This document shows, piece by piece, positions 6,507 to 64,000 of a stretch of DNA of 64,000 bases. The stretch's first letter is position 1. Every line of letters starts with the position of its first letter. This DNA comes from an uncultured Candidatus Melainabacteria bacterium (GTDB taxonomy: Bacteria; Cyanobacteriota; Vampirovibrionia; Gastranaerophilales; Gastranaerophilaceae), in contig CAKUUX010000001.1 in assembly GCA_934693165.1 (NCBI GenBank), positions 41,206-105,205 of the forward strand, read 5' to 3'. The position numbers were made by a program, and so were the translations under genes. The notes under the pieces were generated by a model. The model had not been told where the DNA came from. It did no database searches and saw only the letters and a list, made by a program, of their open reading frames with translations.

Positions 6507-6743
6507 ATGTATCCAATAGAGCTATCTTTGAGTAGACCAAAAAATATTTTGACAGTAAGAGAAGAAGAAGTTTTGATAGAATTAATAAATGGTAAAAATA
6601 ACTATGAAATTGCAAATGATTTGTACATAAGCGTACATACTGTAAAATTTCATGTTGCATCTATCCTCCAAAAATTTGGTGTTTCAAGAAGGACAATGGT
6701 TATCTTGAAAGCTTTAGCAGATGGATGGATAGATATTATCTAA
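6507..6743 (+). CDS. Small LuxR/GerE-type HTH DNA-binding protein (stand-alone).
   Basis: LTVREEEVLIELINGKNNYEIANDLYISVHTVKFHVASILQKFGV matches the LuxR-family HTH signature. A strong SD (AAAGGAGG) lies 7 nt upstream of the ATG. Confidence 0.65.
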   Translation: MYPIELSLSRPKNILTVREEEVLIELINGKNNYEIANDLYISVHTVKFHVASILQKFGVSRRTMVILKALADGWIDII

Positions 6744-9700
6744 ACTTCTTCGGAATGTCTTACAAGTAAAGGAGTAGATTTTAAGTTATTTTTTTCAATT
6801 AACAAATCAGCTTGTTGTTTATAAGAAAGTGATTGTTCTTCATCTCCTTTTACAGAAAGAAGTTTAGAGATTAATAAGTTAAACATTATTGATAAAATTA
6901 CATTTGAATCAGGATTTTTATCTAATAATGAAATTGTATTTTTTGCAATTCCAAGACCAATATCAACACGGTTTTGTACAATTTTTAAATCGGCAATAAA
7001 ATGCCATGCTAAGATAGAAGCGTTTATTAATCCGTTTTGTGTGCTGATTTCTTTAACGTTTTGATAAATCTTTTGCGCCTTATCGTATTCACCAAGAATT
7101 TTGTATGAATATCCAATTAACAAGTCAGAAAGTAAATCTAGTTGTGTTAAATTGTTTTCTTTTGCTGACAATTTAGCTTGATATACATTTTTTGCAAACA
7201 GTTTAATATCAAAGTTGATATTTTCAAAAGCTTTCAACATACTATAAATGTATTTTGCAAAAATGTTTGAATCATCTAACATACTTGGTTCAACGTCTAA
7301 GTAGAAGTCTTCACCGTGAATGTATTTTTGCAAATAGATAAATAGTGAATAAGATTCAGGAATAACTTCTAATTTTTCTTTTGCTTTTTTGATAACAGGT
7401 GTAACATCTTCTAGTTGGAAGATTTTTGCCATGCAAACGTATCCAATAGTATCATAAATTGATGAGAATACTTGTTCTTGAGGCATTTTGTCAGAAATTA
7501 GGACAGAAATATTTTCTGGTGTAAACATTTCTAACAAGTCTTCTCCTAAAGATATACATTCTTTTAAGTTACCTGTATTAAAGAAAATATTTACCTTAAT
7601 CATTGATATCCAGAATAAAACATTGTTGAATTCTTTATCTGTTGGATTGAAGGATGATTTTGGTAATCTTGATAAAATTTTGTTTGCTAAAGTTATTGCC
7701 TGAGTGTAATTACCTGTTCTTAAGCAACATTGCAAGATTTTATTACACAAATTGATAACTTTTTTATCGTCCATTGCGTGTTCAATATTTTCTAAAACAA
7801 GTTTAGAGAAGTTATACAATTTTGTAGGAATGAATTTGTACAACATATTTGAAATGTTGTCATAAATTATCATTTTGTAGTTATTGATAGATTGTTGAGT
7901 TTCTTCGTCAGAATCTTGTTCCATCATTTTTAATAGTAAAATACTGCAATTTAAATATGCACTGAAATCACCTAACATCAATGCGACATTAGATAATATT
8001 TTCCAGAAGTTTTGAATTTTCTTTTTGTCTTCTAAAATATGGAAAACAGTTAAGTTTATTGGTAAAGGAACATTTTCATCAACAATATTATTTAGTAAAT
8101 AATTTGCAATGTTCAACTTATGACTTTTTTCCAACAGAACTTCTGATACTGTTTTTAAAAGGTTGTAGTTATTAAAATATACCACATTGTTTTCTAAATA
8201 GATGTAACCTTTTTCATCAAGAATACCAAGAGCATTTCCTAAGTCAGGTATATTCAAAGATTGAAGAGTTGAGATATCAATTCTTGGCCCTAAAGTTAGT
8301 AATAACATTAAAATACTGTAAGCATTTTTGTCATGAGATAAAAATCTAAATCTTGTTTCAACAAGTTTTTCAATTGTCGGTGGAAATATTACAGAAGTTT
8401 GTTTTACTAAAGCATATTTTCCATTTTTTAATTCGATAATGTTATTTTCTAGTAAATAATTTGTTGCATGATTTAGGTATAATGAGCTACCTTTTGCGTA
8501 TTGAGCAATTTTTTCCATATAGAAAGAATCTAAAATGTTTGCATAAATATCAACAAAAGGTGAAATTATTTTTTCAAAACTAGAACCTTTTACCATAATC
8601 TCTGTATATTGAGGATTTGATAATAAGAAATGAGAATTTTTATGTAGTGAGAAGTTTTCATCTGCAAAGAAAACTAAATTGATATTATATTTGTTAAAAT
8701 CTTTTAATATAAGTTGTAGGATTTCAAAAGAAGTTAAATCAATTTTTTCAAAATTTTCTACGTAAATTAAACAGTGTTCAAGAGAACTAAACAAGATTGC
8801 AAAAATATTGTACAAAGTATCTCTAATATCTTCTGGATTAACATCAGGAAGAGGTTTTAAATTAATTAAAGCTCTTACAACTCCTGCTTTATCAAGTTTG
8901 TCAAAAGTAGAAAAATTATTTTTTACAAAGTTTTTGGCAGAAATTGAAAAATTGAAAATAGAAGACAATAATTCATAGAAAAATCCATAAGGTCTGTTTA
9001 TAGTGTCCTCTGTGCAAGTTACTTTTACAATTTCTTCGCACAATTTATTGTGTTTTACCATAAGAGGAATTTCGTTAGATACAAGATAATATTTTTTATT
9101 CGTTTTTACAGAAATAATATTTTTAGATTGTTTTCCTAACAAAGTTAAAATAGTATTTTCTAATTCACCAGATTCAACGGTTACGAAGTTACAAACTTGT
9201 TCATCAAAGTTTAACTTTTTAATGTTATGGATAATTGTGTCGTCTTCTTCTAGTTCAATTTCTTGATTCAAATCCTCAAGAGAAAGCTGTTTTAATCTTT
9301 CTTTGATATAATCGTCTTTTGGTTCATCTTCTTCTTTTGGAATAGAAATATATTTTTGCAAATCAAGTTCAAAATACATTTCAAGTTTATCTTTTACAAG
9401 AACTGTTCCAAGCTGAGAAACACTAACTTTATCTCTCAAAACATCTGCTGTACTACTGTCAAGAAGTACTTGAAGTGCATTATGGAATTTGCTTTGGGAT
9501 GTATCTTTATACATCATTTTAATATTAAAACCTGATTTAAAGTCATGAAGTTTGGTATTAATATCTTTTTTCATTAATGTGAAATTACATCTTATAAGAG
9601 TATTATGTGTTCTGTGAAGTTTCACATTAAGTTTCATGATTGGTTTTGCAATTTCCAAAATGAATGAAATTGCTTTAAATACAGAAGCATCAAAGTTGCT

Positions 9701-10135
9701 TTCTTTATTAAATTTGATAATAAAAGCGTTATCAATAATTTGCCATTTTAAATCAATTTGAGAACAGAAACCAATTATTAGGTTGTATAAATTTGTTTTA
9801 AATTTTTTGTAAGCCTCTTTTGAATTAAAAATATCTTTTAAGTTTGCAATGTTTGGAAACTCAATAACGACGCATGCAAAATTAATGATAACAGATTCGT
9901 TAAGAGCGATACTCAATTGGGTATCCATGCCACAATTAGGACATTGTCCAATTTCTGTTAAATTAACTTTTCCACAGTTATGGCATTTGCTCAAAATTGT
10001 ATATCCACATTTTGAACAAATGCTTGTTCTGTTTAGAGTTTTGCAGACAGGACAAGTTAATTGTAAGACCTTCTTACAATTAGGGCATATTTTTGTATCT
10101 GGTGTTATTTCATGATTACATTTAGGACAATGCAT
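6740..10135 (-). CDS. Large multidomain protein (1131 aa) with an N-terminal triple zinc-ribbon, a central degenerate nucleotide-cyclase/STAND-like region, and a C-terminal TPR-like helical repeat region.
   Basis: Six CxxC pairs in the first 70 aa (CPKCN..CPNCK..CPVCK..CSKCG..CHNCG..CPNCG). FACVVIEF resembles the cyclase FADIVGFT motif with the catalytic Asp replaced by Cys. No canonical P-loop was seen. The C-terminus is rich in TPR-like helices. Confidence 0.5.
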   Translation of the reverse strand: MHCPKCNHEITPDTKICPNCKKVLQLTCPVCKTLNRTSICSKCGYTILSKCHNCGKVNLTEIGQCPNCGMDTQLSIALNESVIINFACVVIEFPNIANLKDIFNSKEAYKKFKTNLYNLIIGFCSQIDLKWQIIDNAFIIKFNKESNFDASVFKAISFILEIAKPIMKLNVKLHRTHNTLIRCNFTLMKKDINTKLHDFKSGFNIKMMYKDTSQSKFHNALQVLLDSSTADVLRDKVSVSQLGTVLVKDKLEMYFELDLQKYISIPKEEDEPKDDYIKERLKQLSLEDLNQEIELEEDDTIIHNIKKLNFDEQVCNFVTVESGELENTILTLLGKQSKNIISVKTNKKYYLVSNEIPLMVKHNKLCEEIVKVTCTEDTINRPYGFFYELLSSIFNFSISAKNFVKNNFSTFDKLDKAGVVRALINLKPLPDVNPEDIRDTLYNIFAILFSSLEHCLIYVENFEKIDLTSFEILQLILKDFNKYNINLVFFADENFSLHKNSHFLLSNPQYTEIMVKGSSFEKIISPFVDIYANILDSFYMEKIAQYAKGSSLYLNHATNYLLENNIIELKNGKYALVKQTSVIFPPTIEKLVETRFRFLSHDKNAYSILMLLLTLGPRIDISTLQSLNIPDLGNALGILDEKGYIYLENNVVYFNNYNLLKTVSEVLLEKSHKLNIANYLLNNIVDENVPLPINLTVFHILEDKKKIQNFWKILSNVALMLGDFSAYLNCSILLLKMMEQDSDEETQQSINNYKMIIYDNISNMLYKFIPTKLYNFSKLVLENIEHAMDDKKVINLCNKILQCCLRTGNYTQAITLANKILSRLPKSSFNPTDKEFNNVLFWISMIKVNIFFNTGNLKECISLGEDLLEMFTPENISVLISDKMPQEQVFSSIYDTIGYVCMAKIFQLEDVTPVIKKAKEKLEVIPESYSLFIYLQKYIHGEDFYLDVEPSMLDDSNIFAKYIYSMLKAFENINFDIKLFAKNVYQAKLSAKENNLTQLDLLSDLLIGYSYKILGEYDKAQKIYQNVKEISTQNGLINASILAWHFIADLKIVQNRVDIGLGIAKNTISLLDKNPDSNVILSIMFNLLISKLLSVKGDEEQSLSYKQQADLLIEKNNLKSTPLLVRHSEEV

Positions 10136-10209
10136 AAATAAATTATATCAGTTTATTTTAATAAATCAATTTTTTATGTTATAATACCCTTTAAAAGAGG
10201 GAGTTTTCT

Positions 10210-11118
10210 ATGGAAATTTTTAAATATATTTTTAATCCTGCGTTGATGTTAATCTTTTTATTTTTCGCATTTTCTGTGGGGTATTGTGTTTATAAATACC
10301 AAATTATTAACAAAGAAATGCTTAATCTTTTAGCTTTCTTAAAACAGTTTAAAAAATCAGATTTAAGCTATAGATTTAAAGAATTTGATGAAGGTTTAAC
10401 AGAAAATCCTTACATTTCTGATGTTTGGGTAGAATTTAGAAATACTCTTGTTTTTAACGAAAATGTTACTTTAAAAAATGAAAAAGAAGAAGAAATTGGA
10501 TTTGAGAATGCATCACAAGCTCTTTCTGGTGTTCAAACAACAGTTGATTCTTCTTACTTTTTTAATGAAGAAGCTCTTGTTACTTCAAAATTAAATTATA
10601 AGTTTGTACAAGTAACACCGACATTATTAACAGGTATGGGGCCATTATTTACGTTTATGCATATTGCTTTTGCGTTTGCAAATGTTGATTTTACTTCAAA
10701 CGAATCAACAATGTTGACTATCGAAAACTTGATGGCAAATATGCAAATTGCTGCTTTGTGTTCAGTTTTTGCCGTTGGTGAATCTTTATTATTCTTGATG
10801 TTAGAAAGACTTCTTTATAACATTAAATGTAAGACACCTCTTAATGAAATTCAAAACCACTTATACAAAATTTTTGATAGTGTAACTTCTGAAAAATTCT
10901 TAATTGAATTATTAAAAACTACAAAAATTCAAAACCATGCGCTAGCAAATTCTATGAAAATTTTATCAAGAAGTTTTAAAGATTCTTTTGATAAGAGTTT
11001 AGCATCAATACTTGTTCCATATTTAGACAGCATTGTTTATAATCTTGATAAGATTAAAGAAAACAGTCCAAAAGCTCTTGAAAAACAAGCACTAGATGCA
11101 GTTGATGACTTGTTCTAG
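10210..11118 (+). CDS. ExbB/TolQ/MotA-family proton-channel-like membrane protein.
   Basis: Three-transmembrane topology (TM1 near aa 9-29, TM2 near aa 137-160, TM3 near aa 176-200) like ExbB/TolQ. TM2 reads LLTGMGPLFTFMHIAFAF, close to the ExbB segment GLFGTVWGIMNSF. TM3 ends in the conserved ..LLYN, as in the TolQ/ExbB YN. The SD is AGAGGGAG. Confidence 0.5.
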   Translation: MEIFKYIFNPALMLIFLFFAFSVGYCVYKYQIINKEMLNLLAFLKQFKKSDLSYRFKEFDEGLTENPYISDVWVEFRNTLVFNENVTLKNEKEEEIGFENASQALSGVQTTVDSSYFFNEEALVTSKLNYKFVQVTPTLLTGMGPLFTFMHIAFAFANVDFTSNESTMLTIENLMANMQIAALCSVFAVGESLLFLMLERLLYNIKCKTPLNEIQNHLYKIFDSVTSEKFLIELLKTTKIQNHALANSMKILSRSFKDSFDKSLASILVPYLDSIVYNLDKIKENSPKALEKQALDAVDDLF

Positions 11119-11126
11119 GAGAAGTG

Positions 11127-11825
11127 ATGTTTAGAAAATCTTTAAAAAAAGCAGATTATGTTGAAGAAAATATTTTTTGGATAACAATGTCAGACTTATT
11201 ATTAGGTTTGATGATTATTTTCTTGATTTTGTTTATCATGACAATGGTAGGATTTTCTCAAGCAAAATTTGCAGAAAAATCTGCGCAAGCTGAAATGGCA
11301 TCTGTTTTAGCTGATAAGTTTGAAGCTAACAAAATTAATGTGAATATTAATAAAATGTCAGGACAGATAGAAATTTCTGATTTAGAATTATTTGATTTGG
11401 GTAGTTACAAATTATCAAACAAAGGTAAAGCTTATTTAGATAAATTTTTCCCAATTTATATAGATACTATTTTTTCTAATCCAGAAGTTAGTAATAAAGT
11501 TGAAAATATTATTATAGAAGGTCATACTGATTCTCAAATGTTTAGAGGTTTGAAATCAGAAGATGAGCAATACGCCAAGAATTTAGAACTTTCTTCAATG
11601 CGTGCAACTGAAATTGCGAATTATGTTTTTAAAACAAATTATGATAAAAAGTACAGCAAAAAATTACGCAAAGTTTTAATTACAACTGGAAAAAGCAATA
11701 CTGAACCTGTTTTAACAAATAACAAAGAAGATTTTGATAAAAGCAGACGTGTAGAACTTGAAGTTCGCATGAAAGCTGGCGAAAATGTTCTTGAAAAAAT
11801 GTTAAATCAAAAAGGACTTTTATAA
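11127..11825 (+). CDS. MotB-like protein with an OmpA-type peptidoglycan-binding domain.
   Basis: A single transmembrane segment with the conserved channel Asp (WITMSDLLLGLMIIFL, like MotB WxxYADxMTxLxxFF). The C-terminus has an OmpA-like domain (IIIEGHTDS..NLELSSMRATEIANYV..SRRVELEV). An AGGAGAAG SD sits 5 nt before ATG 11127; the track's GTG at 11124 is probably not the start. Confidence 0.7.
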   Translation: MFRKSLKKADYVEENIFWITMSDLLLGLMIIFLILFIMTMVGFSQAKFAEKSAQAEMASVLADKFEANKINVNINKMSGQIEISDLELFDLGSYKLSNKGKAYLDKFFPIYIDTIFSNPEVSNKVENIIIEGHTDSQMFRGLKSEDEQYAKNLELSSMRATEIANYVFKTNYDKKYSKKLRKVLITTGKSNTEPVLTNNKEDFDKSRRVELEVRMKAGENVLEKMLNQKGLL

Positions 11826-22272: not shown

Positions 22273-24222
22273 CTATTTGCATTTGCATTGATTTTTTTCT
22301 AAATCTTTTATACCTTTTTCCAAAGCGTCAACACGTTTTTCCAAAGTGTCCACTCTCTTTGATAATTGCTTATTTATTTCTATTAAAGCATGAATTCTAT
22401 CTTCTGCACGGTTCAAACGGATGATATAATCTTGAACTTTTTCTTTTAGATTTTCATACAACTTATCCAAATCTTTTATGGCATTGAACATTGTGAATAA
22501 GATGTTGTCTTGTCTAAGAACTAAATATCCGTCTTCGTTTTTTGTTACTGCATAAGGTAGAACTTTTTCTACGTCTTGCGCAATAAGACCAACTCTTTCA
22601 ACCTTTGGTTCTGTCTTGTATGTAAATTTGTACACATCAAGTTTTTTGATTTCGTTCAAACCTGTATTTGCAAATCCTTCAATATTTTTAAGTCTTTTAT
22701 CAGAAATTGTGTTGTAAGTTCCAGTGAATGTACCCCAAATTTCTGTAGAATAATTTGCACCCGTTCTTTGTCTAATATAGTTTGTGTAAGTCCAGTTTGA
22801 ATAAGCTGATGTACCTGCTGTTACTGTTGTTGTTGCGTTAACATAACTTCCTGTATGAAGATATGTGCCCACATTTGCATAAGTACCAACAGTCAAGTTT
22901 GTTGTTGTTTCTGTGTTGCCGTTAACTGTAAGTTTTGAACCTGTGTTAATTGTATTACCACTTCTTACATAAACATTACCTGCATGTAAGAAGATGTTTC
23001 CTGCTCCAGAACCAACAATTGTTTCTGCAGTGGTATTATTGAAAGTAAAACCAGCAGGTAAATTTGAATATCCAGAAGAAGTACCCAAACATGTTTTATT
23101 ACTACCAGAAACCGAACTGCAAGCTTTGTAACCAACGCCAGTATTATTAGAACCTGATTGAACTCCGTCTACTGCACCTTGACCAATACCAGTATTTGCA
23201 GTACCAGATGTTACGTTGTATCCTGCTTGGAAACCAACAAAAGAGTTATAACTACCCGTAGTATCCAAATATAGTGGTCGATACCCAACGCCAACATTGT
23301 ATGAACCTGCTCCATTTGTAATTAATGGTTCTGTGCCAATGGCTACGTTGTTATTTGCTGCTTGTTTGTTTTTAAGTGCTTGATAACCAATAGCGATATT
23401 TGATGCACCTGTAGTATTTGCAGATCCTGCATAATAACCAATAGCAATATTGTTTGCACCTGTTGTTGTTTCTGTTAAAGAAGAATTTCCTACTGCAACA
23501 TTGTTATAAGCCGTTGTATTTTTTATTAAGGCGTGGTAGCCAATCCCTACATTGTTTTCGCCAGAAGTGTTTGCAATTAATGTAGAGTTACCAAATGCAG
23601 TATTGTTAGAACCTGTAGTGTTTGCGTACAATGTACTTGAACCAATACCTATATTATCTCTACCTGAAGAAGTTGTTCTCAACGCATTTGAACCAATTGC
23701 GGTATTTGAAAAACCTGAAGTTAAAGAAGTTAAAGCTTGATGTCCGATACCAGTATTGTTGTTTCCAGTTACGCTACCAGTCATTACATTATATCCAGCA
23801 CCAAAGTTATCTGTACCAGTACTGTTTTGTACAGCATTCATTCCAAGACCCATGTTGTTATTATTTTTAAATCTAATATATCCAACAGTTGTGTTGTTAT
23901 ACATCATTCCGATTTGAGAGCGAGTATTACTGTTTGGTATATTGATATACAATCTTGCCAAACCTTGTGCATCAGGAGTTATAGAAGTTCCAAGCATTGC
24001 ACTTTGCGTTGAAGCAGGGGATGCAAACCAAATATCTGTATTGTTTCGGGCTAATTTCCAAAGTCCTCCACCACCAGAACCTGAGCCACCACCACTAGTT
24101 TTTTTGTTTGTGGTTACAGGCAAAATGGCTGCCATTACTAATGACAAGATTAAAAGTACAACTGTCATTTCTGCAATGGTGAAGGCTTTTCTATTTTTAA
24201 ATATTGAAAATAACTTATTCAT
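22273..24222 (-). CDS. Modular prepilin-like protein fused to a beta-helical repeat fibre and a C-terminal intramolecular-chaperone (peptidase S74, tail-fibre type) domain, with a terminal coiled coil.
   Basis: Class-III signal peptide (leader MNKLFSIFKNRKA, then FTIAEMTVVLLILSLVMAAIL with Glu at +5). Gly/Ser linker GGGSGSGGGG. At least 13 tandem ~17-aa repeats (NNxAxGxxAL..NTTGxxN). C-terminal ISDKRLKNIEGF...VYKFTYK...VGLIAQDVEKVLP matches the SDxRxKxNI autoproteolytic chaperone domain of endosialidase-type tail spikes. It ends in a heptad coiled coil (LEKRVDALEKGIKDLEK). Confidence 0.7.
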   Translation of the reverse strand: MNKLFSIFKNRKAFTIAEMTVVLLILSLVMAAILPVTTNKKTSGGGSGSGGGGLWKLARNNTDIWFASPASTQSAMLGTSITPDAQGLARLYINIPNSNTRSQIGMMYNNTTVGYIRFKNNNNMGLGMNAVQNSTGTDNFGAGYNVMTGSVTGNNNTGIGHQALTSLTSGFSNTAIGSNALRTTSSGRDNIGIGSSTLYANTTGSNNTAFGNSTLIANTSGENNVGIGYHALIKNTTAYNNVAVGNSSLTETTTGANNIAIGYYAGSANTTGASNIAIGYQALKNKQAANNNVAIGTEPLITNGAGSYNVGVGYRPLYLDTTGSYNSFVGFQAGYNVTSGTANTGIGQGAVDGVQSGSNNTGVGYKACSSVSGSNKTCLGTSSGYSNLPAGFTFNNTTAETIVGSGAGNIFLHAGNVYVRSGNTINTGSKLTVNGNTETTTNLTVGTYANVGTYLHTGSYVNATTTVTAGTSAYSNWTYTNYIRQRTGANYSTEIWGTFTGTYNTISDKRLKNIEGFANTGLNEIKKLDVYKFTYKTEPKVERVGLIAQDVEKVLPYAVTKNEDGYLVLRQDNILFTMFNAIKDLDKLYENLKEKVQDYIIRLNRAEDRIHALIEINKQLSKRVDTLEKRVDALEKGIKDLEKNQCKCK

Positions 24223-27987: not shown

Positions 27988-29697
27988 ATGTCAACAAGTA
28001 TTGATTACTTTGATTATATACAGATTAGTATCGCCTCACCTGAAAGAATTTTAAAATGGTCTTACGGTGAAGTTACTAAACCTGAAACAATCAACTACCG
28101 TACTTTAAAACCAGAAAGAGATGGTCTTTTCTGCGAAAGAATTTTTGGACCTACAAAAGACTGGGAATGTTATTGCGGAAAATATAAAAGAGTTCGTCAT
28201 AAAGGTATCATTTGCGAACGTTGTGGTGTAGAAGTTACTGACTCAAAAGTACGTCGTCACAGAATGGGACACATTAAATTAGCTGCCCCTGTTTCACATA
28301 TTTGGTTCCTAAAAGGTATTCCATCATATATGGGTCTTTTACTTGATATGTCTTTAAAAGATTTAGAACAAGTAATTTACTTCAACAATTACGTTGTAAT
28401 TGATGGTGGAGATAGCGAATTTAGAAAATATCAACTTTTATCTGAAGATGAATACGAAGATTACGTATTAGAACACGAAGAAACAACTCTTAAAGTTGGT
28501 ATCGGTGCAGAGGCTATTAAAGAATTAATCGGTGAAATCGATATTAAAGCTCTTGCAGAAGAAATTAGAACAGAATTAAACAATGGTGTAACTTCTGTTC
28601 AAAAGAAATCAAAATTAATTAAGAGATTGAGATTATTAGATTCATTAATCTCAAGCGAAACAGATCCAACTTGGATGATTATGGATGTAATTCCTGTAAC
28701 TCCACCAGACTTAAGACCAATGGTTCAATTAGATGGTGGTCGTTTCGCTACATCTGACTTAAATGATTTATACAGACGTGTAATCAACAGAAACAACCGT
28801 TTACAAAGATTATTAGAAATGGGCGCTCCTGAAATTATCGTAAGAAACGAAAAACGTATGTTACAAGAAGCAGTAGACGCTTTAATTGATAACGGTAGAC
28901 GTGGTAGAACAGTTGTTGGTCCAAACAACAGACCATTGAAATCATTATCAAACATTATCGAAGGTAAACAAGGTCGTTTCCGTCAAAACTTATTAGGTAA
29001 ACGTGTTGACTACTCAGGTCGTTCAGTTATCGTAGTAGGTCCATCATTGAAATTAAATCAATGTGGTTTACCAAAAGAAATGGCAATTGAATTATTTAAA
29101 CCATTTGTTGTAAACAAATTAATCGAACGTGGTTATGTTCAAAATATTAAATCAGCTAAGAAGAGAATTGAACGTTCAGAACCTATCGTATGGGATATCT
29201 TAGAAGAGGTAATCGATGGACACCCAGTATTACTAAACCGTGCCCCAACTCTTCACAGATTAGGTATTCAAGCATTCGAACCAAAATTGGTTGAAGGACG
29301 TGCAATCCAATTACACCCTCTTGTATGTACAGCATTCAACGCTGACTTCGATGGTGACCAAATGGCTGTCCATGTTCCTTTATCAATTGAAGCTCAAACT
29401 GAAGCAAGAATGTTGATGTTAGCATCTAATAACATCTTAGCTCCTGCTACAGGTAAACCAATCATTACACCATCTCAAGATATGGTTATGGGCATGTACT
29501 ACTTGACTCTTGTTAAAGATGAAAGTAAGGAAGCTCAACACTATTTCTATAACTTCCAAGATGCAATTTCTGCTCTTGAAGTAGGTGTAATCAAGCTTCA
29601 CGATAAAATCATTGTTCGTGATGAACATGGTAAACGTTTTGAAACTACAGCTGGAAGAATTATATTCAACGAAGCTGTTAGAAAGGCACTTGTATAG
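27988..29697 (+). CDS. rpoC1: DNA-directed RNA polymerase gamma subunit, the N-terminal half of beta-prime (cyanobacterial-type split).
   Basis: Contains the zinc finger ([20 protein letters not shown]) and the catalytic NADFDGDQM motif, then terminates after about 569 aa. SD is AAAGGAGA. Confidence 0.95.
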
Positions 29698-29721
29698 AAA
29701 GTTAGTTAAGGATAATAAAAA

Positions 29722-32700
29722 ATGGAAAATATGTACACACAAACAAAAAATGCTCCAGAATTTATTAATAAACAGATGGATAAAAAAGCTTTAAACAAGC
29801 TATTATCTCAAATTTATCTTGAATACGGCGGAGCTAAAGCAGCAGAACTTGCTAATACATTAAAAAATTTGGGTTACCATTACGCAACTAAATCAGGCGT
29901 AACAATTTCAATTTCTGACTTGTCAGTTCCAGAATCTAAAAAAGATTTATTGAACGAAGCAGAAGCAGAAATTGAAAAATCTACAACTCGTTATTTAAAA
30001 GGTGAAATTACAGAAGTAGAAAGATATACAAAGGTTATCGACACTTGGTCTGAAACAACAGCTAAATTAACAGCTCAAGTAGTTGAAAACTTTGATAGAT
30101 TGAACCCAGTTTATATGATGGCATTCTCAGGTGCCAGAGGTAACTTATCACAAGTATCACAATTAGTTGGTATGCGTGGATTGATGGCAGATGCGCAAGG
30201 TCAAATCATCGACTTACCTATTAAAGCAAACTTTAAAGAAGGTCTATCTTGTACAGAATACATCATTTCATCATACGGTGCTCGTAAAGGTCTTGTAGAT
30301 ACAGCGTTAAAAACAGCTGACTCTGGTTACTTAACAAGACGTCTAGTTGACGTTGCACAAGATGTTATCATTCGTGATGCTGATTGCCATGGCACAAAAC
30401 ATATCATGTTAAAGAGTATTACTGATGGTGGTTCTGTTATCGTTCCTTTAATCGATAGATTATTAGGTAGAACAATTGCACAAGACATTGTTGATGAAGA
30501 TGGTACAGTTCTTGTAACAGCAAACACAACAATGGGCCGTGAAGATATTGAAAAAATTCGTCACTTAAACTTAGAAGAACTTGCAGTTCGTTCAGGTTTA
30601 ACTTGTGAATTAGAATATGGTGTTTGCCAAAAATGTTATGGTTGGGCAATGACAACTCAAAAACTTGTTGATGTTGGTGAAGCAATCGGTATTATCGCAG
30701 CTCAATCAATTGGTGAACCTGGTACACAGTTAACAATGAGAACATTCCACACAGGTGGTGTATTCAAAGGTTCTGGTGCTATGAAAACTGTTGAAGCTAA
30801 AGATTCTGGTAAAATCTCTTGCAAATTAAAAACTAGAGAAGTAAGAACTCGTCACGGGGATGTTGTAAAACTTTCTATGTACGAAGTTGAAGCCGAAATC
30901 AAAGGTGCTAAGAGAACAACTAAATACCACATTCCTGCTGGTGCAACAATCTTCTTTACAGATGGTCAAGAAGTTGAAAAGGGATTCAAACTTGCTGAAT
31001 ACGAACCAGTATCACAAGGGGATGGTTCTCGTTTAACAGAAAAAGCTACAAAAGATATTACATCTGACTTATCAGGTGAAGTTATTTTCAAAGACTTTAT
31101 TGCTGATGAAAAGAAAGATAGACAAGGTAACATTTCAAGAACAGCTAACAAACAAGGTATTGTTTGGGTTCTTGGTGGTGATGTTTATAACTTACCAAGT
31201 GGTTCAAAACTTTTAGTTAAAGACGGTCAAAAAATGAAAGAGGGCGAAAAGCTTGCTGAAACATTGACTGTTTGTGAACACGGTGGTGAAGTTCGTATTG
31301 GTCAAGACCTTGTTATTGAAGAAACAAAATTTGAAGGTCATAAAATCAAGAAGATTGTTCAAGGTAAAGAATTAACAATCGTTATTGCATCATTAATGCC
31401 ATCAAATGCTACATTTGAACAAACTAAGAAAGAACAACTTTGGACAGTTGAAGCAACTGGTGAAAAATATATTGTTAAATCTCCAGTTGATACTCCAGTT
31501 GAAAATGGTATGATTATTGCCGAATTAATCAATGGTGACTGCTCAGTTGAATCTTCTGGTGAAATCAAATATATCGACGTTGAAGTTGATGAAAATCAAA
31601 TAATTACAAAATCAGGTGATGTTGTATTTATTCCTGAAGAAGTTCACCAATTAAGCAAAGATTCTGCTTTAAAAATGGTTGAATCAGGAAGTTATGTAAC
31701 AGCTGGTACAGAAATCGTTAAAGACGTATATTGTCACTTAGACGGTATCGTTGAAATTAAAGAATACAATGATGTAATTCACGAAGCTGTAATCAGACCT
31801 GGTCAAATTCATACATTATCAAGTGTTTCTGAATTAAAAGTTGAAGAAAACGAAGTTATCAAAAAAGGAACAGTTATTGCAGACGGTATTAAAGCAAAAG
31901 AAACTTCTATCGTTACAGTAATGGATTCTGAAGATGATTTCGCTGATATCGATGATTTAGATGAAGAACTTGATACATCATTGAGTTTGGATGAAGAAAA
32001 CATTACAGACAAACCAATTCAAATTTTGGTAAGACCTGTAAAAGTTATCAAAATTAAACCTCAAGAAGTTTCAATTAAATTTGACAAAACTGATGATTTA
32101 ATTGACATCGTTCCTGTAACACAATTACAATATAAAGACGGTGCTAGAGTTAGAAATCTTGACGGTGCTACATTAACAAGAACAAGTTTAGTTCTTCAAA
32201 TGCAAGGTTACTTATCACACTTAAAAGGTATGGTAGAACTTGATAAGAACAATAACTTGAAGATTGTTGTATTAGAAACATTAATTGTTCGTCGTGAAAT
32301 TGAAGGTAATTCTAAATTGAATTCTTCAATGCAAACTGAATTGTTAGTTAACCACGGTGACGTTATTGAACCAAAAACTCCAGTTGCAAAAACACAAGTA
32401 CTAGTAATCAATGATGGTGTTGCTTCAATTAAGAAAGCTGAAGAAGACGCAAGAAGATTATTATTAGTTTGTGAAAACTTTGAATCAAAAGTTGCAATTA
32501 AAACAAAACCTCTTGTAAAAGCTGGAGATATGGTTAAATTAGACGATTTACTATCAGAAGGTGGCGACAGATCACCAGTTTCTGGTCAAGTAGTTTCTGT
32601 ATCAAAATCAGAAGTAGTCGTAAGAGAAGGTAGACCATACTTAATCAGCCCAGGTACTCAGTTACTAGTTGAAGAAAATTCATTAGTACTACGTGGTGAT

Positions 32701-33567
32701 ATGTTGGCTACATTGTTATATGAAAGACAAAAAACAGGTGATATCGTTCAAGGTCTTCCAAGAGTTGAAGAATTACTTGAAGGTAGAAAACCTAAAGATA
32801 GTGCAATTCTTGCTGAGTTTGACGGTAAAGCTATTATTGAAACAGATGATGATATGCCAAGATTGTATTTAGAAACTGAAGACGGTTCAAGAACTGAAAT
32901 CAAATTCGCAATTGATGCAAATATTATCGTTTCAAACGGTGAAAAGATTAAAAAAGGTCAACCATTAACAAGTGGTTCACTAAATCCTCATGACGTTATG
33001 AGATTATGTGGTCCAGAAGTTGCACAACAATATCTAGTAGATGAAGTACAACGTGTATATCGTTCACAAGGTGTAGAAATTGCTGATAAACACATTGAAA
33101 TCATCGTTCGTCAAATGACTAAGAAAGTTAAAGTTATCGAACCAGGTGATACAAAACTTCTTCCAGGCGAACTTGTTGAAATGCAAACATTTGAAAAAGA
33201 AAACAAGGAAGCAGTTGCGAACGGTTTACAAGCAGCAACTTGTGAATACATGTTATTAGGTATTACAAAAGCTTCATTGAATACTGAATCATTTATTTCA
33301 GCAGCTTCATTCCAAGAAACAACAAGAATTCTTACTGAAGCAGCTGTAGATGGTAAGAAAGACTTATTGAGAGGTTTGAAAGAAAACGTTATCATTGGTC
33401 GTCTAATCCCTGCAGGTACAGGTTACCATCACTTGACTCATGCAAATGAGGAAAAGGATAAAGAAGCACAAAGAAGAGCAGCAGCACGTAACCAAGCTAG
33501 AAAACCTTCTGCAATCTTAGAAGAAATTGAAGGTATGTTTGGCGCTCCTGACTTCACTATTGAGTAA
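29722..33567 (+). CDS. rpoC2: DNA-directed RNA polymerase beta-prime C-terminal portion with a large lineage-specific insertion.
   Basis: 1281 aa. It begins at the conserved G region ([16 protein letters not shown]), and has a long insertion between the trigger-loop segments. Its own SD is AAGGAT. Confidence 0.95.
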
Positions 33568-33590
33568 TTCGATAGTTAATTGACAAAAAA

Positions 33591-33619
33591 GCAAGTTTGT
33601 TTCAAACTTGCTTTTTTTG
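33591..33619 (+). terminator. Rho-independent terminator after rpoC2.
   Basis: GCAAGTTTG-ttt-CAAACTTGC followed by TTTTTTTG. It lies inside the 5' end of the track ORF 33580..35403, so the true start of that ORF must be downstream. Confidence 0.8.
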
Positions 33620-33642
33620 TTTATAGTTGGTATTTTTATTTT

Positions 33643-35403
33643 ATGTTTAATCAAAATGTTTTATCTTTAAAAAAATGTAATCTTAACTTAGCTGACAAGT
33701 TGATTGGGCTTTCTTTTGACAAAGCAAGAGAAACTATTGATATTGCAAAGTCAGAGAGTGATGATGTTATTTTTATAAAAAATAATATTCCTCTTGAAAG
33801 TACAGTTAATCCTATAGAAGAGGCGTTTTATGAAGTACAATCTTCTATAAAATCTTCTATGGGGGCGTTTGATTTTATAATTATTTTTGGCTTAGGTGTT
33901 GGGTACATGCTAGATTATATTTTTGAAAAATATAATAGTAAAATTATTTTGGTTGAACCTGACATAAATGTTATGAGAACAGCTTTTGAGATGGTTGATT
34001 ATTCAAAATATCTTGAAAGTGGTCGTCTTTTTATGACTTGTAATTATGAAGATGTTTATAAATATCTTTCTAAAAAATATATTATTAATGATAAGGTCGA
34101 AATTGTATTTTTAAAACAATATATAAGTTTGTATGCAAATGATATAAAGTCTTTTACAGAAAAAATATATGAAACTTGTGCAGTGAAAATTTCTGATATA
34201 AACACAATTAAAAAAAATTCAGAAGCATGGGTGTCTTCAAGTATCAGATTTGTAAAAAATAGTGGTCAAACTTATCCAGTAAGTCTTTTAGACAAAAAAT
34301 TTGAGGGCAGAACGGCACTTGTGCTTGGTGCTGGCCCAAGTTTGAAGGATAACATTGACTATATTAAAAAATATTCAGATAGATTAGTTATTTTTGCAAT
34401 AAATAGAACTATAAATTTTTTACTAGAGTATGGTATTATTCCAAATTTTGCTATCTTTACTGATACTAAACATATTAAGAATACATTTAATTTTAATGCC
34501 CCTCAATTAAAAGATATAAACTTTGTTGTAGATATAAAAGCAGATGCTGAACTTTATAACGTTCTTAAAAAGCGTTGTTTTATATATTATCCTAATAATT
34601 TTGATTTAGCAAAAATTTTGGCTGAAAAGAACTCTTATATTCATCTGTACCAGACTGCTGGAACATCAACTTTTTGTGCTTTGATTTGCGCAAAAGAATT
34701 GGGTTGCAAAAATGTTATTTTATCAGGTGTTGATTTAGCTTTTAAGAACGATACTCCGTATTGCTCTGATTCTTATGCAGTTAATCTAAAAGTTGATAAG
34801 GACAAAGTTACAATTGGAAGTATGGAAAAAAAGATTGTTTTCGTTAAATCTGTTACAGGAGAACTTGTTAAAACAAGAGAAGATTATGAAATTTTTATTA
34901 AACAATTCCAAAATTTCTTTAAAGAAAATCCTCAGATAAAAGCTTATAATACATCAAGTTTTGGTGCTCAGATAGATGGTACTACAAATTTTAATTTTGA
35001 AGAAATTATGTCAAAAATTGAAATTCCTTTTGATAATAAATCTATAGAAGATATTATAAATGATACGTTATATAGAAGTGATTATAACCCTGTAGAACTT
35101 AAAAAAGAAGCTAGAAACATTGTGAGAAATGAAGAAGAATTAAACTTTGAAATAAGAGGCTCTATCAAAACTCTTTTAAATAGAGATGTTAACGATGAAG
35201 TTTTTTACGTTACTTCTTTTACTATTTTAGATAAAATTTCTAAAACTATATTTTTATCTCAACTTCTTCAATTTGAACTTTTAAATTGTACAAAATTAAT
35301 TTCACAAGAAAATACTGTTCAAAAAAGAGCAAGTTTTGAATTATTTTTAGAAGAAACTTTGAAAAAAGTAGACTTTTTAAATGTTAGACTTGCTGAGATT
35401 TAA
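33643..35403 (+). CDS. Motility-associated factor (Maf) family protein, DUF115-containing, a putative flagellin nonulosonic-acid glycosyltransferase.
   Basis: About 587 aa. It has the DUF115/MptE-like core (FDFIIIFGLGVGYML..IILVEPD; ALVLGAGPSLKDNIDYIKKYSDRLVIFAINRT; FAIFTDT). The start is reassigned to ATG 33643, downstream of the rpoC2 terminator. Confidence 0.65.
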   Translation: MFNQNVLSLKKCNLNLADKLIGLSFDKARETIDIAKSESDDVIFIKNNIPLESTVNPIEEAFYEVQSSIKSSMGAFDFIIIFGLGVGYMLDYIFEKYNSKIILVEPDINVMRTAFEMVDYSKYLESGRLFMTCNYEDVYKYLSKKYIINDKVEIVFLKQYISLYANDIKSFTEKIYETCAVKISDINTIKKNSEAWVSSSIRFVKNSGQTYPVSLLDKKFEGRTALVLGAGPSLKDNIDYIKKYSDRLVIFAINRTINFLLEYGIIPNFAIFTDTKHIKNTFNFNAPQLKDINFVVDIKADAELYNVLKKRCFIYYPNNFDLAKILAEKNSYIHLYQTAGTSTFCALICAKELGCKNVILSGVDLAFKNDTPYCSDSYAVNLKVDKDKVTIGSMEKKIVFVKSVTGELVKTREDYEIFIKQFQNFFKENPQIKAYNTSSFGAQIDGTTNFNFEEIMSKIEIPFDNKSIEDIINDTLYRSDYNPVELKKEARNIVRNEEELNFEIRGSIKTLLNRDVNDEVFYVTSFTILDKISKTIFLSQLLQFELLNCTKLISQENTVQKRASFELFLEETLKKVDFLNVRLAEI

Positions 35404-37579: not shown

Positions 37580-38596
37580 TTATTTAAGAGTGTTTTCTAA
37601 ATAAGACCAATCAAATTCTTTTGAGTTAATAATTGTAAGTAACTGACTTCTATCAACATTTCTCATTAGATTAATGAAAAAGTCCATATTAACATCTGGT
37701 TTTATATTTGTATAAGGTAATTTCAAATCTTCTGCAAGTCTTTCAACTTTATAATCATAAGAAAGTGCCAAAGTTCTTATTCCGTATTTTGCGCATACAA
37801 GGCAGGCATGAAATCTCATTGCTATCATATATTTAAGACTTCTCATTAACTCAATTAATTGTTCAGGAGTCTTATTATAAACTACTTCTGTCTGCATATT
37901 TGGGTTTAAGCTTTTTAGTATGCCTTCAAAATGTGTACAAACTTCTTTATCCAATGCGTCTTGGAAAGAAAAGATTTGTATTTTTTTATTATAAAAATTT
38001 TGTTCAACTGATTTAGCAAGTTTTTGTAAAAAAGTTTCGCTCAAACCTTTAAAACTTCTAAGTTGAATACCGACAGTTTCTGTTGGAGTTGAACCTGCAA
38101 GTTTAAGGGCAAATAAAGGATCTACAACACGTTCTGTATTGATTCCCCATCCTCTCAATAGGAAAAGACTCTTATCATCTCTGACAGTCACGCAAGAGGC
38201 TTTTCTAAGAAGTTTTTTGCACCACATTTCACCAAGTTTGTTTTTGATAGGTCCAATGCCTTGAGCAAAAATCATTACCTTTTTATGGAAAAATTCTGCA
38301 ACAGAAATAACAAAAAGATAATAAAACAAACTCTTTACGCTAGTTGTATCTTGTAAAAGGCTTCCACCACCAGAGATTAAAATATCTGATTTCAAAATAG
38401 TTGTTATTACTTTTGGCAAGTCAAAACTTTTTACGGCATTAACTTTGTGCAATTCTTTTGTTTTTTCAGGATTTAGTGACAAAACTGTTATGTCAACTTT
38501 TTCTTCCTTAAGTTTATCGACAAGCACTTTTAAAATTGTTTCGTCGCCAAAATTATCGCTACCGTAATACCCTGATATAACAACCTTTTTTGCCAT
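37580..38596 (-). CDS. csaB: Polysaccharide pyruvyl transferase, CsaB-like.
   Basis: N-terminal VVISGYYGSDNFGDETIL matches the CsaB/PS_pyruv_trans signature. About 338 aa. Confidence 0.75.
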   Translation of the reverse strand: MAKKVVISGYYGSDNFGDETILKVLVDKLKEEKVDITVLSLNPEKTKELHKVNAVKSFDLPKVITTILKSDILISGGGSLLQDTTSVKSLFYYLFVISVAEFFHKKVMIFAQGIGPIKNKLGEMWCKKLLRKASCVTVRDDKSLFLLRGWGINTERVVDPLFALKLAGSTPTETVGIQLRSFKGLSETFLQKLAKSVEQNFYNKKIQIFSFQDALDKEVCTHFEGILKSLNPNMQTEVVYNKTPEQLIELMRSLKYMIAMRFHACLVCAKYGIRTLALSYDYKVERLAEDLKLPYTNIKPDVNMDFFINLMRNVDRSQLLTIINSKEFDWSYLENTLK

Positions 38597-38600
38597 TTGA

Positions 38601-39209
38601 TTAGCCTTTTAATTCTTTCATTATATTTTTTGTACGATTAGTAATTTCTGAGAAATTAAAACCTTGATACAAGTTTCTACCAACACCAACAGCTGTTGCT
38701 CCTGCTTTAATATAGTCAGGAACTTCTTCTAATTTGATGTTTCCCATTGGCATAATATTTAAGAATGGCATTGGTCTTAGTAAATCTTCTACGTATAAAG
38801 GTCCACCAAGAGCTGTGATTGGATAAATCTTAATTAAAGGAACTCTTGCTTTCCATGCTTGGTATGCTTCGTTTGCTGTTGAAGTACCTGCAATGAATGG
38901 AATTTGTGCATTCTTTGAAATCTTAACCATATTCATTTGGAAAATTGGTGAAGAAATAATTTTTGCGCCATGTTGAATAGCGTTTGTTGCTTGTTGTGCT
39001 GTTATAACACCACCTGCGCAAACTATCGCTTCTTGTGATATTTCTTGAATTGCATCATAAATTTCTGGGCTTTCAAGAGTTATTTCTAACATTTTTACGC
39101 CACCATCAATCAATGCTCTTGCAGTATCTTTTGTTTTTTGTGGGTCTGCACATCTAATGATTGGGTAAAGTTTTTCTTCTTTTAATAATTCGATTAAATT
39201 TGTTGCCAT
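38601..39209 (-). CDS. eda: 2-dehydro-3-deoxyphosphogluconate (KDPG)/4-hydroxy-2-oxoglutarate aldolase.
   Basis: Eda family motifs: LKEEKLYPIIR, GVKMLEITL, PLIKIYPITALGGPLYVEDL, MPMGNI. Confidence 0.8.
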   Translation of the reverse strand: MATNLIELLKEEKLYPIIRCADPQKTKDTARALIDGGVKMLEITLESPEIYDAIQEISQEAIVCAGGVITAQQATNAIQHGAKIISSPIFQMNMVKISKNAQIPFIAGTSTANEAYQAWKARVPLIKIYPITALGGPLYVEDLLRPMPFLNIMPMGNIKLEEVPDYIKAGATAVGVGRNLYQGFNFSEITNRTKNIMKELKG

Positions 39210-39263
39210 AGTAGTATCCTTTTTTTCAAATTTATTATATCATGAAATAAAATAAACGGAGTT

Positions 39264-44805: not shown

Positions 44806-44835
44806 ACCTTAAAATTTACATACAAAATTATACTA

Positions 44836-45093
44836 TTATTTATTTAAAATTTCATTAATTTTTTCTAAAACTTTTTCAGTTGTAGCTTCAGAAATTATTT
44901 CGTCATTTACTCGTACATAAGGAGCTTTTGAATATTCTGTATTTTTTGAACACATTTCTAAGCATGTACTTCCGTTTATTTCAACTTTATCTCCATATTT
45001 TCTTGGTACGATGTCTATTAATTCTTGCAAATGAGAGCCACCCATTACAAAACACGTTGTTCCTAAGCATACGTCAACTTTAATCTTTTCCAT
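44836..45093 (-). CDS. Thioredoxin-like [2Fe-2S] ferredoxin (NuoE/HydC-like small protein).
   Basis: 85 aa. Cys pattern CLGTTC ... CLEMC (Cx4C...Cx3C) is typical of the thioredoxin-like 2Fe-2S family. Confidence 0.6.
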   Translation of the reverse strand: MEKIKVDVCLGTTCFVMGGSHLQELIDIVPRKYGDKVEINGSTCLEMCSKNTEYSKAPYVRVNDEIISEATTEKVLEKINEILNK

Positions 45094-45102
45094 ATTTTCT
45101 CC

Positions 45103-63828: not shown

Positions 63829-64000
63829 ATGGCTATTACAATCAACACAAACGTTGCATCGTTAGTTGCCCAAAAATCATTGAACAATGCGACATCAAAA
63901 ATGAACACAGCGATGGAAAGATTATCAACAGGTTTGAGAATCAATTCATCAAAAGATGATGCAGCAGGTAGTGCAGTAGCAACAAAATTAAATTATAAAA
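63829..64000 (+). CDS. Flagellin, N-terminal D0/D1 portion; the gene continues beyond the window end.
   Basis: [54 protein letters not shown] is the canonical flagellin N-terminal helical domain. SD is AAAAGGAGA. Confidence 0.85.

Follow-up and report, generated by a model that had tools for sequence, protein, structure and literature searches.

A short-tailed ZorA/ZorB-like gene pair conserved in Melainabacteria

Introduction

What does a putative proton-channel gene pair do when it shares features with flagellar stators, with Tol/Ton energizers and with the motor of Zorya anti-phage systems, and sits among housekeeping genes? The question is raised by two adjacent genes at positions 10210–11825 of a 64,000-nucleotide stretch of DNA (hereafter, the window) from an uncultured Candidatus Melainabacteria bacterium of the order Gastranaerophilales (assembly GCA_934693165.1, contig CAKUUX010000001.1, positions 41,206–105,205 of the forward strand). 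Their products, here called protein A and protein B, are unnamed in database records ("hypothetical protein" or no name). Were protein B annotated as MotB-like, it could be mistaken for a flagellar stator in Melainabacteria, whose motility is debated. An earlier note on this DNA favored an unusual flagellar stator and offered, as its alternative, a separate machine driven by the proton-motive force, such as Zorya.

Comparison with known families indicates that the two proteins are homologs of ZorA and ZorB. In the current view of Zorya, the 70-nm tail of the motor serves to recruit nucleases; the pair described here keeps a stub of that tail, comes with no effector genes and occurs throughout an order of gut bacteria. 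We consider it an evenly balanced proposition that the pair forms a proton motor, fixed in this lineage and anchored to the wall, which signals or makes use of the envelope's state. It is probably neither a flagellar stator nor a classical Zorya cassette.

Results

Organization of the gene pair

The two genes and their parts are laid out in the window as follows.

10210..11118, plus strand: zorA-like gene (protein A), 302 aa; three transmembrane helices, membrane-proximal cytoplasmic domain and short tail stub
10237..10299, plus strand: first transmembrane helix, about aa 10–30; hydrophobic PALMLIFLFFAFSVGYCVY within predicted helix 10–45, boundaries inferred
10615..10683, plus strand: second transmembrane helix, about aa 136–158, aligned to the ZorA structure; Thr148 codon at 10651–10653
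10732..10809, plus strand: third transmembrane helix, about aa 175–200, ending ..LLYN; Ser185 codon at 10762–10764
10885..11115, plus strand: tail stub, about aa 226–302; predicted helix 228–285 (about 58 residues), low-complexity linker and the motif VDDLF (11101–11115)
11127..11825, plus strand: zorB-like gene (protein B), 232 aa, listed among the open reading frames with a GTG start at 11124; one transmembrane helix and an OmpA-like domain
11193..11195, plus strand: Asp24 codon, equivalent of ZorB Asp26 and MotB Asp32
11388..11768, plus strand: OmpA-like peptidoglycan-binding domain (Pfam OmpA, 6.5e-9, aa 89–203)

For protein B, the ATG at 11127 (232 aa) is a likelier start than the GTG at 11124 (233 aa), since a GGAG lies 5 nt upstream of it, at 11118–11121, and the ortholog in locus L001 of the survey described below is 232 aa long. 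The zorB-like start lies 5–8 nt past the zorA-like stop, which the GGAG overlaps. Downstream of the zorB-like gene, a 240-bp gap precedes an AIR-synthase-related gene.

Compared with orthologs of 70–95% identity, both genes gave a ratio of nonsynonymous to synonymous substitution rates (dN/dS) of 0.03–0.14, which resembles that of the adjacent transporter genes. Both open reading frames are real and under strong purifying selection; that the genes are real follows equally from the matches of their products to ZorA and ZorB profiles, which are far beyond chance. The Rfam scan of the window returned no match, and the PHROGs search returned no informative one.

Protein A is related to ZorA

The PADLOC ZorA1 model matched protein A at 1.1e-20, with the match spanning the first 250–300 positions of models of 600–700 positions, and the ZorA2 models of the same collection matched weakly (about 1e-6). 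ZorA families also ranked top in NCBIfam (1e-15 to 3.5e-17), and close homologs of protein A in a public protein collection carry the precomputed tag PF28082 (ZorA-like_t1). The local Pfam-A search returned no match for protein A, MotA_ExbB included. Among solved structures, Escherichia coli ZorA (PDB 8qyd) was matched at 4.4e-14. The earlier note had proposed a remote-homology comparison with MotA, ExbB, TolQ and ZorA, for which hhalign gave the following:

annotated Klebsiella ZorA1: 98.2% probability, E 4.6e-14, 210 columns
E. coli MotA: 0.08%
E. coli TolQ: 0.42%
E. coli ExbB: 0.09%

Structural comparison agreed. An AlphaFold 2 (AF2) model of protein A of moderate quality (predicted local distance difference test score, pLDDT, 67.5) was searched with Foldseek, and the top six PDB matches were ZorA chains (E 2.5e-6 to 2e-5); TolQ came next at about 0.05, ExbB at 0.14 or worse, and MotA was absent from the top 50. 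The three hydrophobic helices (about aa 10–30, 136–158 and 175–200) coincide with AF2 helices 10–45, 130–157 and 164–222, and the first aligns with ZorA1 residues ~20–40. In the structure alignment, Thr148 and Ser185 are the equivalents of ZorA Thr147 and Ser184, which form the ion filter (PMC11946911), and both were invariant in 19 diverse family members. Of the two glutamates of the ZorA calcium site, E86 is retained as E75 in protein A, and E89 is replaced by Asn. By these comparisons, protein A is a ZorA homolog, with significant profile similarity across the three transmembrane helices and the cytoplasmic domain.

Protein B is related to ZorB

Protein B matched the PADLOC ZorB1 model over its full length (1.1e-50, residues 3–226 of 233) and the ZorB2 model at 6.5e-36, and ZorB families ranked top in NCBIfam. 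Among solved structures, the ZorB of Sulfuricurvum (8vvi, 1.8e-14) and that of E. coli (8qyd_F, 6e-9) were found. MotB/PomB structures matched at about 1e-4 and MotB families at 1e-7 to 1e-11, in both cases over the OmpA domain only, and MotB_plug gave a weak match confined to the transmembrane helix (E=0.04, 13.9 bits against a cut-off of 24).

Asp24 of protein B (WITMSD24LLLGLM) aligns with ZorB Asp26 (fwitmsDlllglm / fwisyaDlmtamm), the essential proton carrier (PMC11946911). The OmpA-like domain contains GHTD, N..LS..RA and SRRVEL motifs, and these, together with D24, are conserved at 97% or more across 80 family members. The EcZorB residues N152, L155 and R159, which bind peptidoglycan (PMC11946911), align to the N, L and R of N..LS..RA. 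Judged from its sequence, protein B is a ZorB homolog, and everything that a proton-driven, wall-anchored motor would need is present in the pair. Pfam and PADLOC already place the pair, implicitly, in the ZorA and ZorB families.

Of the claims in the earlier note, the description of both proteins held up: protein A is a three-helix partner unlike MotA, and protein B combines a channel Asp with an OmpA domain in the manner of MotB. The favored reading as an unusual flagellar stator found no support, as protein A is a ZorA homolog and protein B is far closer to ZorB than to MotB. With Zorya the note had named the right family for its alternative, a separate proton-motive-force-driven machine, but the long tail, the effectors and the defense-island context of such a system are missing.

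A truncated tail ending in a conserved motif

The tail of protein A comprises about 77 residues, from about residue 226 to the end at 302. In EcZorA, the tail runs from Gly223 to Thr729 (~507 aa) and projects 70 nm, and long tails are reported across all Zorya subtypes; every truncation of the EcZorA tail abolished defense, and deletion of its tip stopped the recruitment of ZorD (PMC11946911).

To place the short form, an exhaustive homolog search was run against 1.84 billion cluster representatives. Eleven representatives were near-full-length relatives of protein A (about 292–309 aa, at least 299 bits). The next full-length matches scored at most 121 bits and were mostly proteins of 400–880 aa, aligned over the first ~300 residues only. 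The nearest long relative lies in a zorA–zorB–EH_Signature (zorC)–SNF2/Mrr (zorD) operon. In a profile search, the last 65 aa of the short family were co-linear with positions ~240–300 of long ZorAs, which identifies the short form as a C-terminally truncated ZorA. The possibility that the short C-terminus is the kept tip of a long tail, left by an internal deletion, was rejected, as it maps to 240–300 and not to the long-ZorA ends. Two apparent intermediates were also discarded: a 397-aa ZorA, which seems to be a split gene in a locus with zorB- and zorC-like genes, and a second one of intermediate length on a 1.4-kb contig.

Protein A is 293–316 aa long in nearly all of the 80 species surveyed, and all 80 proteins carry the C-terminal motif, which consists of two hydrophobic residues, Asp, a usually acidic residue and Leu/Ile-Phe. 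Typical forms are VVDDLF and ILDDLF, with VDDLF in the window, and a linker rich in G, S, N and K precedes the motif. It forms the exact C-terminus (..VVDDLF) in about two thirds of the proteins; in one clade a short acidic extension follows (..ILDDLFGNNDEE). Together with residues 222–242 (FD..SSEKFLIELLK..KIQN), the motif is among the most conserved cytoplasmic parts of protein A. Among 95 long ZorAs, 55% have a related hydrophobic–acidic–acidic–hydrophobic pattern within their final 25 residues, compared with 6% of internal windows; this resemblance of the long-ZorA tip to the short C-terminus is at the level of the motif only.

We read the C-terminal motif as a putative tethered partner-docking peptide. 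Two specific forms of mimicry were considered and rejected, judged by the generally known sequence rules for SSB tails and β-clamp-binding motifs. A mimic of the SSB C-terminal tail was dismissed because the Phe is followed by the acidic extension in about one third of the species, so that a free terminal carboxylate is not required. A β-clamp-binding motif was dismissed because the Gln and Leu positions of such motifs are missing.

Distribution and genomic context

To analyze the distribution of the pair, one genome per GTDB species was scanned, and each locus was surveyed together with ~8 kb of flanking DNA to either side. A relative was found in 89 species, and the loci of 80 of them (numbered from L001) were examined. 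Almost all of these are labeled as metagenome-assembled genomes (MAGs) of Melainabacteria, Gastranaerophilales or Cyanobacteria. The genes for A and B are adjacent in 79 of the 80 loci, and the exception sits at a contig end. The flanks are highly variable, with 172 distinct protein clusters within three genes on either side of the pair. Recurrent neighbors, named by reading their translated sequences and not by database matches, are the following, counted over the 80 loci.

Zinc-ribbon/STAND gene: 35
455-aa protein, UPF0210-like by reading: 32
GlgA: 24
NusG, L11, L1 and thymidylate kinase (Tmk): 11–13
SecA: 8

Among 148 distinct neighbor proteins from these loci, no PADLOC family was matched by more than three. 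Matches with one to three members each were obtained for candidate-defense models (mad, PDC-S) and for GajB, RT-helicase and dGTPase models; the GajB-type neighbors look like ordinary UvrD-like helicases. None of the 25 PADLOC families listed for these 148 proteins is a Zor effector, and the window reading frames scanned gave no PADLOC or Pfam match to ZorC (EH_Signature), ZorD (SNF2/Mrr) or ZorE. Phage collections gave no match, and the only plasmid matches were annotated zorA1 genes of 26% identity. The window itself is ordinary chromosome, with split rpoC1/rpoC2, ClpB, holA/holB and [FeFe] hydrogenases. The steady pairing, the housekeeping flanks, the lack of a phage match and the restriction of plasmid matches to zorA1 together indicate a vertically inherited, lineage-fixed module and not a mobile defense cassette.

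The 455-aa gene starts just past the zorB stop or overlaps it in 32 species (L007, L033, L056, L067, L073, L075 and 26 others). A gene of ~113 aa lies near the pair in 28 species, usually after the 455-aa gene. Both genes may be co-transcribed with the pair in these species; the window has neither.

Among these loci, the Melainabacteria-specific pair also sits on MAG contigs labeled Methanobacteriaceae archaeon, Muribaculaceae, Anaerovoracaceae, Alistipes senegalensis, Clostridia, Clostridium sp. and Eubacteriales (L003, L012, L019, L024, L027, L031, L044, L059, L060, L066 and L079). One of them, L003, has full flanking synteny with the Melainabacteria locus L002. These off-lineage bins are probably contaminated or mislabeled.

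The zinc-ribbon/STAND/TPR neighbor

As the earlier note had observed, the pair lies beside a large zinc-ribbon/STAND-like gene, from which it is separated by a short divergent intergenic region.

6740..10135, minus strand: zinc-ribbon/STAND/TPR gene, 1131 aa (Pfam DZR and TPR); a candidate partner, not an established one
10136..10209, no strand: 74-bp intergenic region between the zorA-like gene and the divergent zinc-ribbon/STAND gene, with back-to-back promoter-like hexamers

The hexamers are TTAATA-16-TG-TATAAT on the plus strand (10158–10185) and TTGATT-16-TATAAT on the minus strand (10169–10142), both of them consensus matches in AT-rich DNA and thus weak evidence. In the AF2 model of the 1131-aa protein, which is confident (pLDDT 84), four zinc ribbons and a class III cyclase-like domain are seen together with a STAND-like core and a long array of TPR repeats. 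Foldseek matched it to the archaeal STAND-TPR protein 6mfv (3.4e-11), a CyaB-type cyclase (9e-5, i.e., about 1e-4), Avs4 (7.7e-5) and MalT. No conserved Walker A motif was found, the position of the first metal-binding Asp of the cyclase appears by eye to be Cys, and the protein showed no nuclease or other effector domain and no PADLOC match. It looks like a catalytically degenerate signaling scaffold.

The STAND-like gene is lineage-restricted, is under purifying selection (dN/dS 0.05–0.10) and often adjoins glgA. It lies divergently, 72–120 bp from zorA, in the 35 loci where it neighbors the pair, and these include the window lineage, in which both outer flanks differ from those elsewhere. 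The synteny is suggestive of an association with the pair, and the STAND-like protein is the sole candidate partner seen.

Two further observations concern the surroundings of this gene. A 78-aa reading frame on the plus strand (window 6507–6743) overlaps, by its last 4 nt, the 3′ end of the oppositely oriented STAND-like gene; this reading frame is conserved at 68–83% identity in L001–L006, with weaker matches in L048 and L061. Genes for a CHASE2-adenylate/guanylate cyclase, a KDPG-type aldolase and a polysaccharide pyruvyl transferase (window 37580–41225) lie ~27 kb from the STAND-like gene, and the same genes stand directly beside STAND–glgA in L083 (7065–12233) and in L084. The differing placement of these genes between lineages indicates that the region has been rearranged.

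Flagellar genes and the pair

The organism does encode flagellin, as the earlier note had stated: a flagellin N-terminus runs off the 3′ end of the window (~63850–64000, plus strand), and public contigs break at the flagellin gene. A Maf-like protein (MptE-like / Maf_flag10_N; 33580–35403, plus strand) is encoded 28 kb upstream of it, and the organism is probably flagellated. The 64-kb window contains no canonical motAB. No flagellar gene was noticed beside the pair in the 80 loci, in which most of the variable neighbors were screened by PADLOC only and not by Pfam.

A recent survey places the flagellar stators in a single clade and finds that motility depends on elements specific to it, the fourth helix and the torque interface (PMC12505986). 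Protein A has three helices and has neither the fourth helix nor the torque-generating cytoplasmic interface of MotA. A full flagellar set is present in ~25% of 62 human-gut Gastranaerophilales genomes (bioRxiv 10.64898/2026.04.24.720558), while ~40 of the loci with the pair appear, from MAG names alone, to come from human-gut species; the denominators differ, and the comparison is suggestive only. The literature and its supplements yielded no explicit motA/motB calls for flagellated Melainabacteria. In the table of Soo et al., non-flagellate genomes are without MotA and MotB, and one of them has an 'OmpA flagellar motor protein', an entry that could not be linked to this family.

Discussion

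Relation to known ion-driven motors

With type I Zorya (EcZorAB, 8qyd; Shewanella, 8vvn), the pair shares a three-helix A protein with a membrane-proximal cytoplasmic domain and a Thr/Ser filter, a B protein with a transmembrane Asp and an OmpA-like domain, and adjacent, translationally coupled genes with A preceding B; zorABCD operons are also where the nearest long relatives lie. It differs in its tail (~77 against ~507 aa), in the absence of zorC and zorD, in an identity of about 20–27% with scores below the NCBIfam cut-offs, and in being chromosomal and lineage-fixed in housekeeping contexts, neither patchy nor mobile. Type II Zorya (Sulfuricurvum kujiense, 8vvi, with ZorE) provides the closest solved ZorB to protein B, which also matches the ZorB2 profile, but neither the window nor the neighbors yielded a ZorE-like gene, and the match of protein A to ZorA2 is weak. 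The operon carries none of the ZorC, ZorD, ZorE, ZorF and ZorG effectors that belong to the zorABCD, zorABE and zorGABF operons of types I–III.

MotAB and PomAB share with the pair a B protein that joins one transmembrane helix, bearing a conserved Asp, to an OmpA-like domain and, presumably, a 5:2 rotary architecture. They differ from it in protein A, which has three helices, no torque interface and no detectable MotA similarity, and in the lack of flagellar gene linkage; the plug match of protein B is weak and not convincing. TolQR and ExbBD share the three-helix topology of A, and TolQ chains are its second-tier structural matches; however, significant sequence similarity and a MotA_ExbB match are lacking, the OmpA domain of protein B has no counterpart in TolR and ExbD, and no TolA or TonB partner is encoded near the pair.

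A wall-anchored proton motor as the preferred reading

An envelope-linked role is favored over a classical phage-defense cassette because the module is fixed across the order, lies in housekeeping contexts and is under strong constraint. By homology to the solved ZorA5B2 complexes, two copies of protein B would be embedded in the inner membrane, with their OmpA-like domains holding them to the peptidoglycan. The proton path would lead through Asp24 of B and the filter formed by Thr148 and Ser185 of A, and the A pentamer would turn around B as a 5:2 ion-driven motor. The state of the wall or membrane may be sensed in this way and a signal sent to the cytoplasm through a short five-helix stub, whose five tethered C-terminal peptides could dock a partner encoded elsewhere.

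Several points weigh against this reading. The role of the pair is inferred, and both the 5:2 stoichiometry and the rotation are extrapolated from homologs. Protein A scores below the curated NCBIfam cut-offs, with 62.6 against 100 bits for the best family, NF033915, and 58.7 against 750 for the ZorA1 equivalog, and likewise for the ZorB family with protein B (65.4 against 400 bits). The window organism has flagellin and a Maf-like gene. As to the STAND-like protein, three more diverged homologs (L081, L083 and L085) have no pair within 1.6–6 kb, and in two of these loci the gene is still beside glgA. A mirror-tree test of co-evolution, based on distance-matrix correlation, gave r = 0.78–0.94 for ZorA against STAND, the same as for ZorA against ZorB. 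The correlation of ZorA with the unrelated 455-aa UPF0210-like neighbor was equally high, and only GlgA and one other neighbor differed; the test was therefore set aside as not specific.

A broader generalization is more doubtful, and we offer it tentatively: a ZorAB motor may be able to work without a long tail or nuclease effectors and may have been fixed in Gastranaerophilales, either as part of the core envelope machinery or as the sensing half of a new system with the catalytically degenerate zinc-ribbon/cyclase-like/STAND/TPR protein. Its output would run through the C-terminal peptide, and the motif would possibly be an ancestral docking element of all Zorya motors. A constrained, effector-less ZorAB with only a stub of a tail would mean that the motor either has a second, non-defense job or can signal via a much simpler output, and structural studies, as well as work on what the motor senses, would gain a minimal ZorAB made by nature. 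We expect such a form to be moderately surprising to a specialist in Zorya or in stators. A literature search found no paper on ZorA-, ZorB- or Zorya-like homologs, and none of the reviews of related motors that were searched for mentions a short-tailed, effector-less or lineage-fixed form.

Alternative explanations

The stator idea is disfavored. A ZorAB-type motor driving the C-ring in place of MotAB, or as an auxiliary stator, would fit an organism that has flagellin and a Maf-like flagellin-modification enzyme and shows no canonical motAB within the 64-kb window, and protein B does share its Asp and OmpA architecture with MotB. Protein A, however, has three helices and not four, with no Pfam MotA_ExbB match and almost no hhalign probability for MotA, and protein B matches ZorB at 1e-50 and MotB families far more weakly, through the OmpA domain. 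The confinement of flagellar stators to one clade with elements required for motility (PMC12505986), the lack of flagellar genes seen beside the pair, and the gap, no more than suggestive given its differing denominators, between the share of fully flagellar gut genomes and the number of gut loci with the pair all make this role highly improbable. Almost as hard to sustain is a Tol/Ton-like energizer, in which the pair would power periplasmic or outer-membrane work through a TolA/TonB-like partner outside the A pentamer and the stub would be structural only. The ExbB/TolQ-like topology of protein A, the position of TolQ as next-best structural match and the fixation of the pair in housekeeping contexts of a diderm lineage agree with it; the OmpA-type domain of protein B, which sets it apart from TolR and ExbD, does not, and no TolA-, TonB- or Pal-like gene recurs beside the pair. 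Protein A is best conserved in, among other parts, its tail stub and C-terminal motif, which argues instead for a cytoplasmic output, and we regard an energizer as improbable.

A role in defense has more to recommend it, and we still think it unlikely. Here the pair would be a new minimal Zorya-type anti-phage system that senses phage damage to the envelope and signals to the STAND/TPR protein, or to an unlinked effector, in place of ZorC, ZorD or ZorE. The motor family is otherwise known only from defense, and the STAND/TPR-like neighbor structurally resembles, among others, the antiviral Avs4. The two are adjacent across a shared promoter region of 74–105 bp in 35 of the 80 species, in some of which both outer flanks have changed, and the pair and the STAND-like family appear confined to the same lineage. 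Occurrence in at least 89 species-level genomes, always with housekeeping flanks and with no defense-island signal, is nevertheless atypical for defense. The STAND-like gene stands apart from the pair in all three diverged homologs, and its product has no conserved Walker A motif, an apparent Cys at the cyclase Asp position, no effector domain and no PADLOC match; in E. coli, moreover, all tail truncations abolish defense (PMC11946911). A last alternative is a decaying Zorya remnant in which zorA was shortened and the effectors were lost, in keeping with the correspondence of protein A to the first ~300 residues of a long ZorA. The low dN/dS, the uniform length, the conserved C-terminal motif and the invariant or nearly invariant catalytic residues effectively refute this last explanation.

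Other features of the window

Several genes distant from the pair are of separate interest. At window positions 27988–33567 on the plus strand, rpoB is followed by separate rpoC1 (569 aa) and rpoC2 (1281 aa) genes, a split of rpoC that is typical of cyanobacteria and consistent with assignment to Melainabacteria. A gene for a SpoIIE-type PP2C phosphatase lies between two [FeFe]-hydrogenase-like genes (43351–47984, minus strand). Genes for a Rex-like regulator and an AdhE-like aldehyde/alcohol dehydrogenase lie near the hydrogenases, which fits the fermentative, H2-producing lifestyle described for this group. Lastly, a 649-aa protein (22273–24222, minus strand) has an N-terminal N_methyl prepilin methylation motif and, at its C-terminus, a Peptidase_S74 domain. 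The latter serves phage endosialidase tail spikes as an intramolecular chaperone and is an unusual companion for the pilin-like motif.

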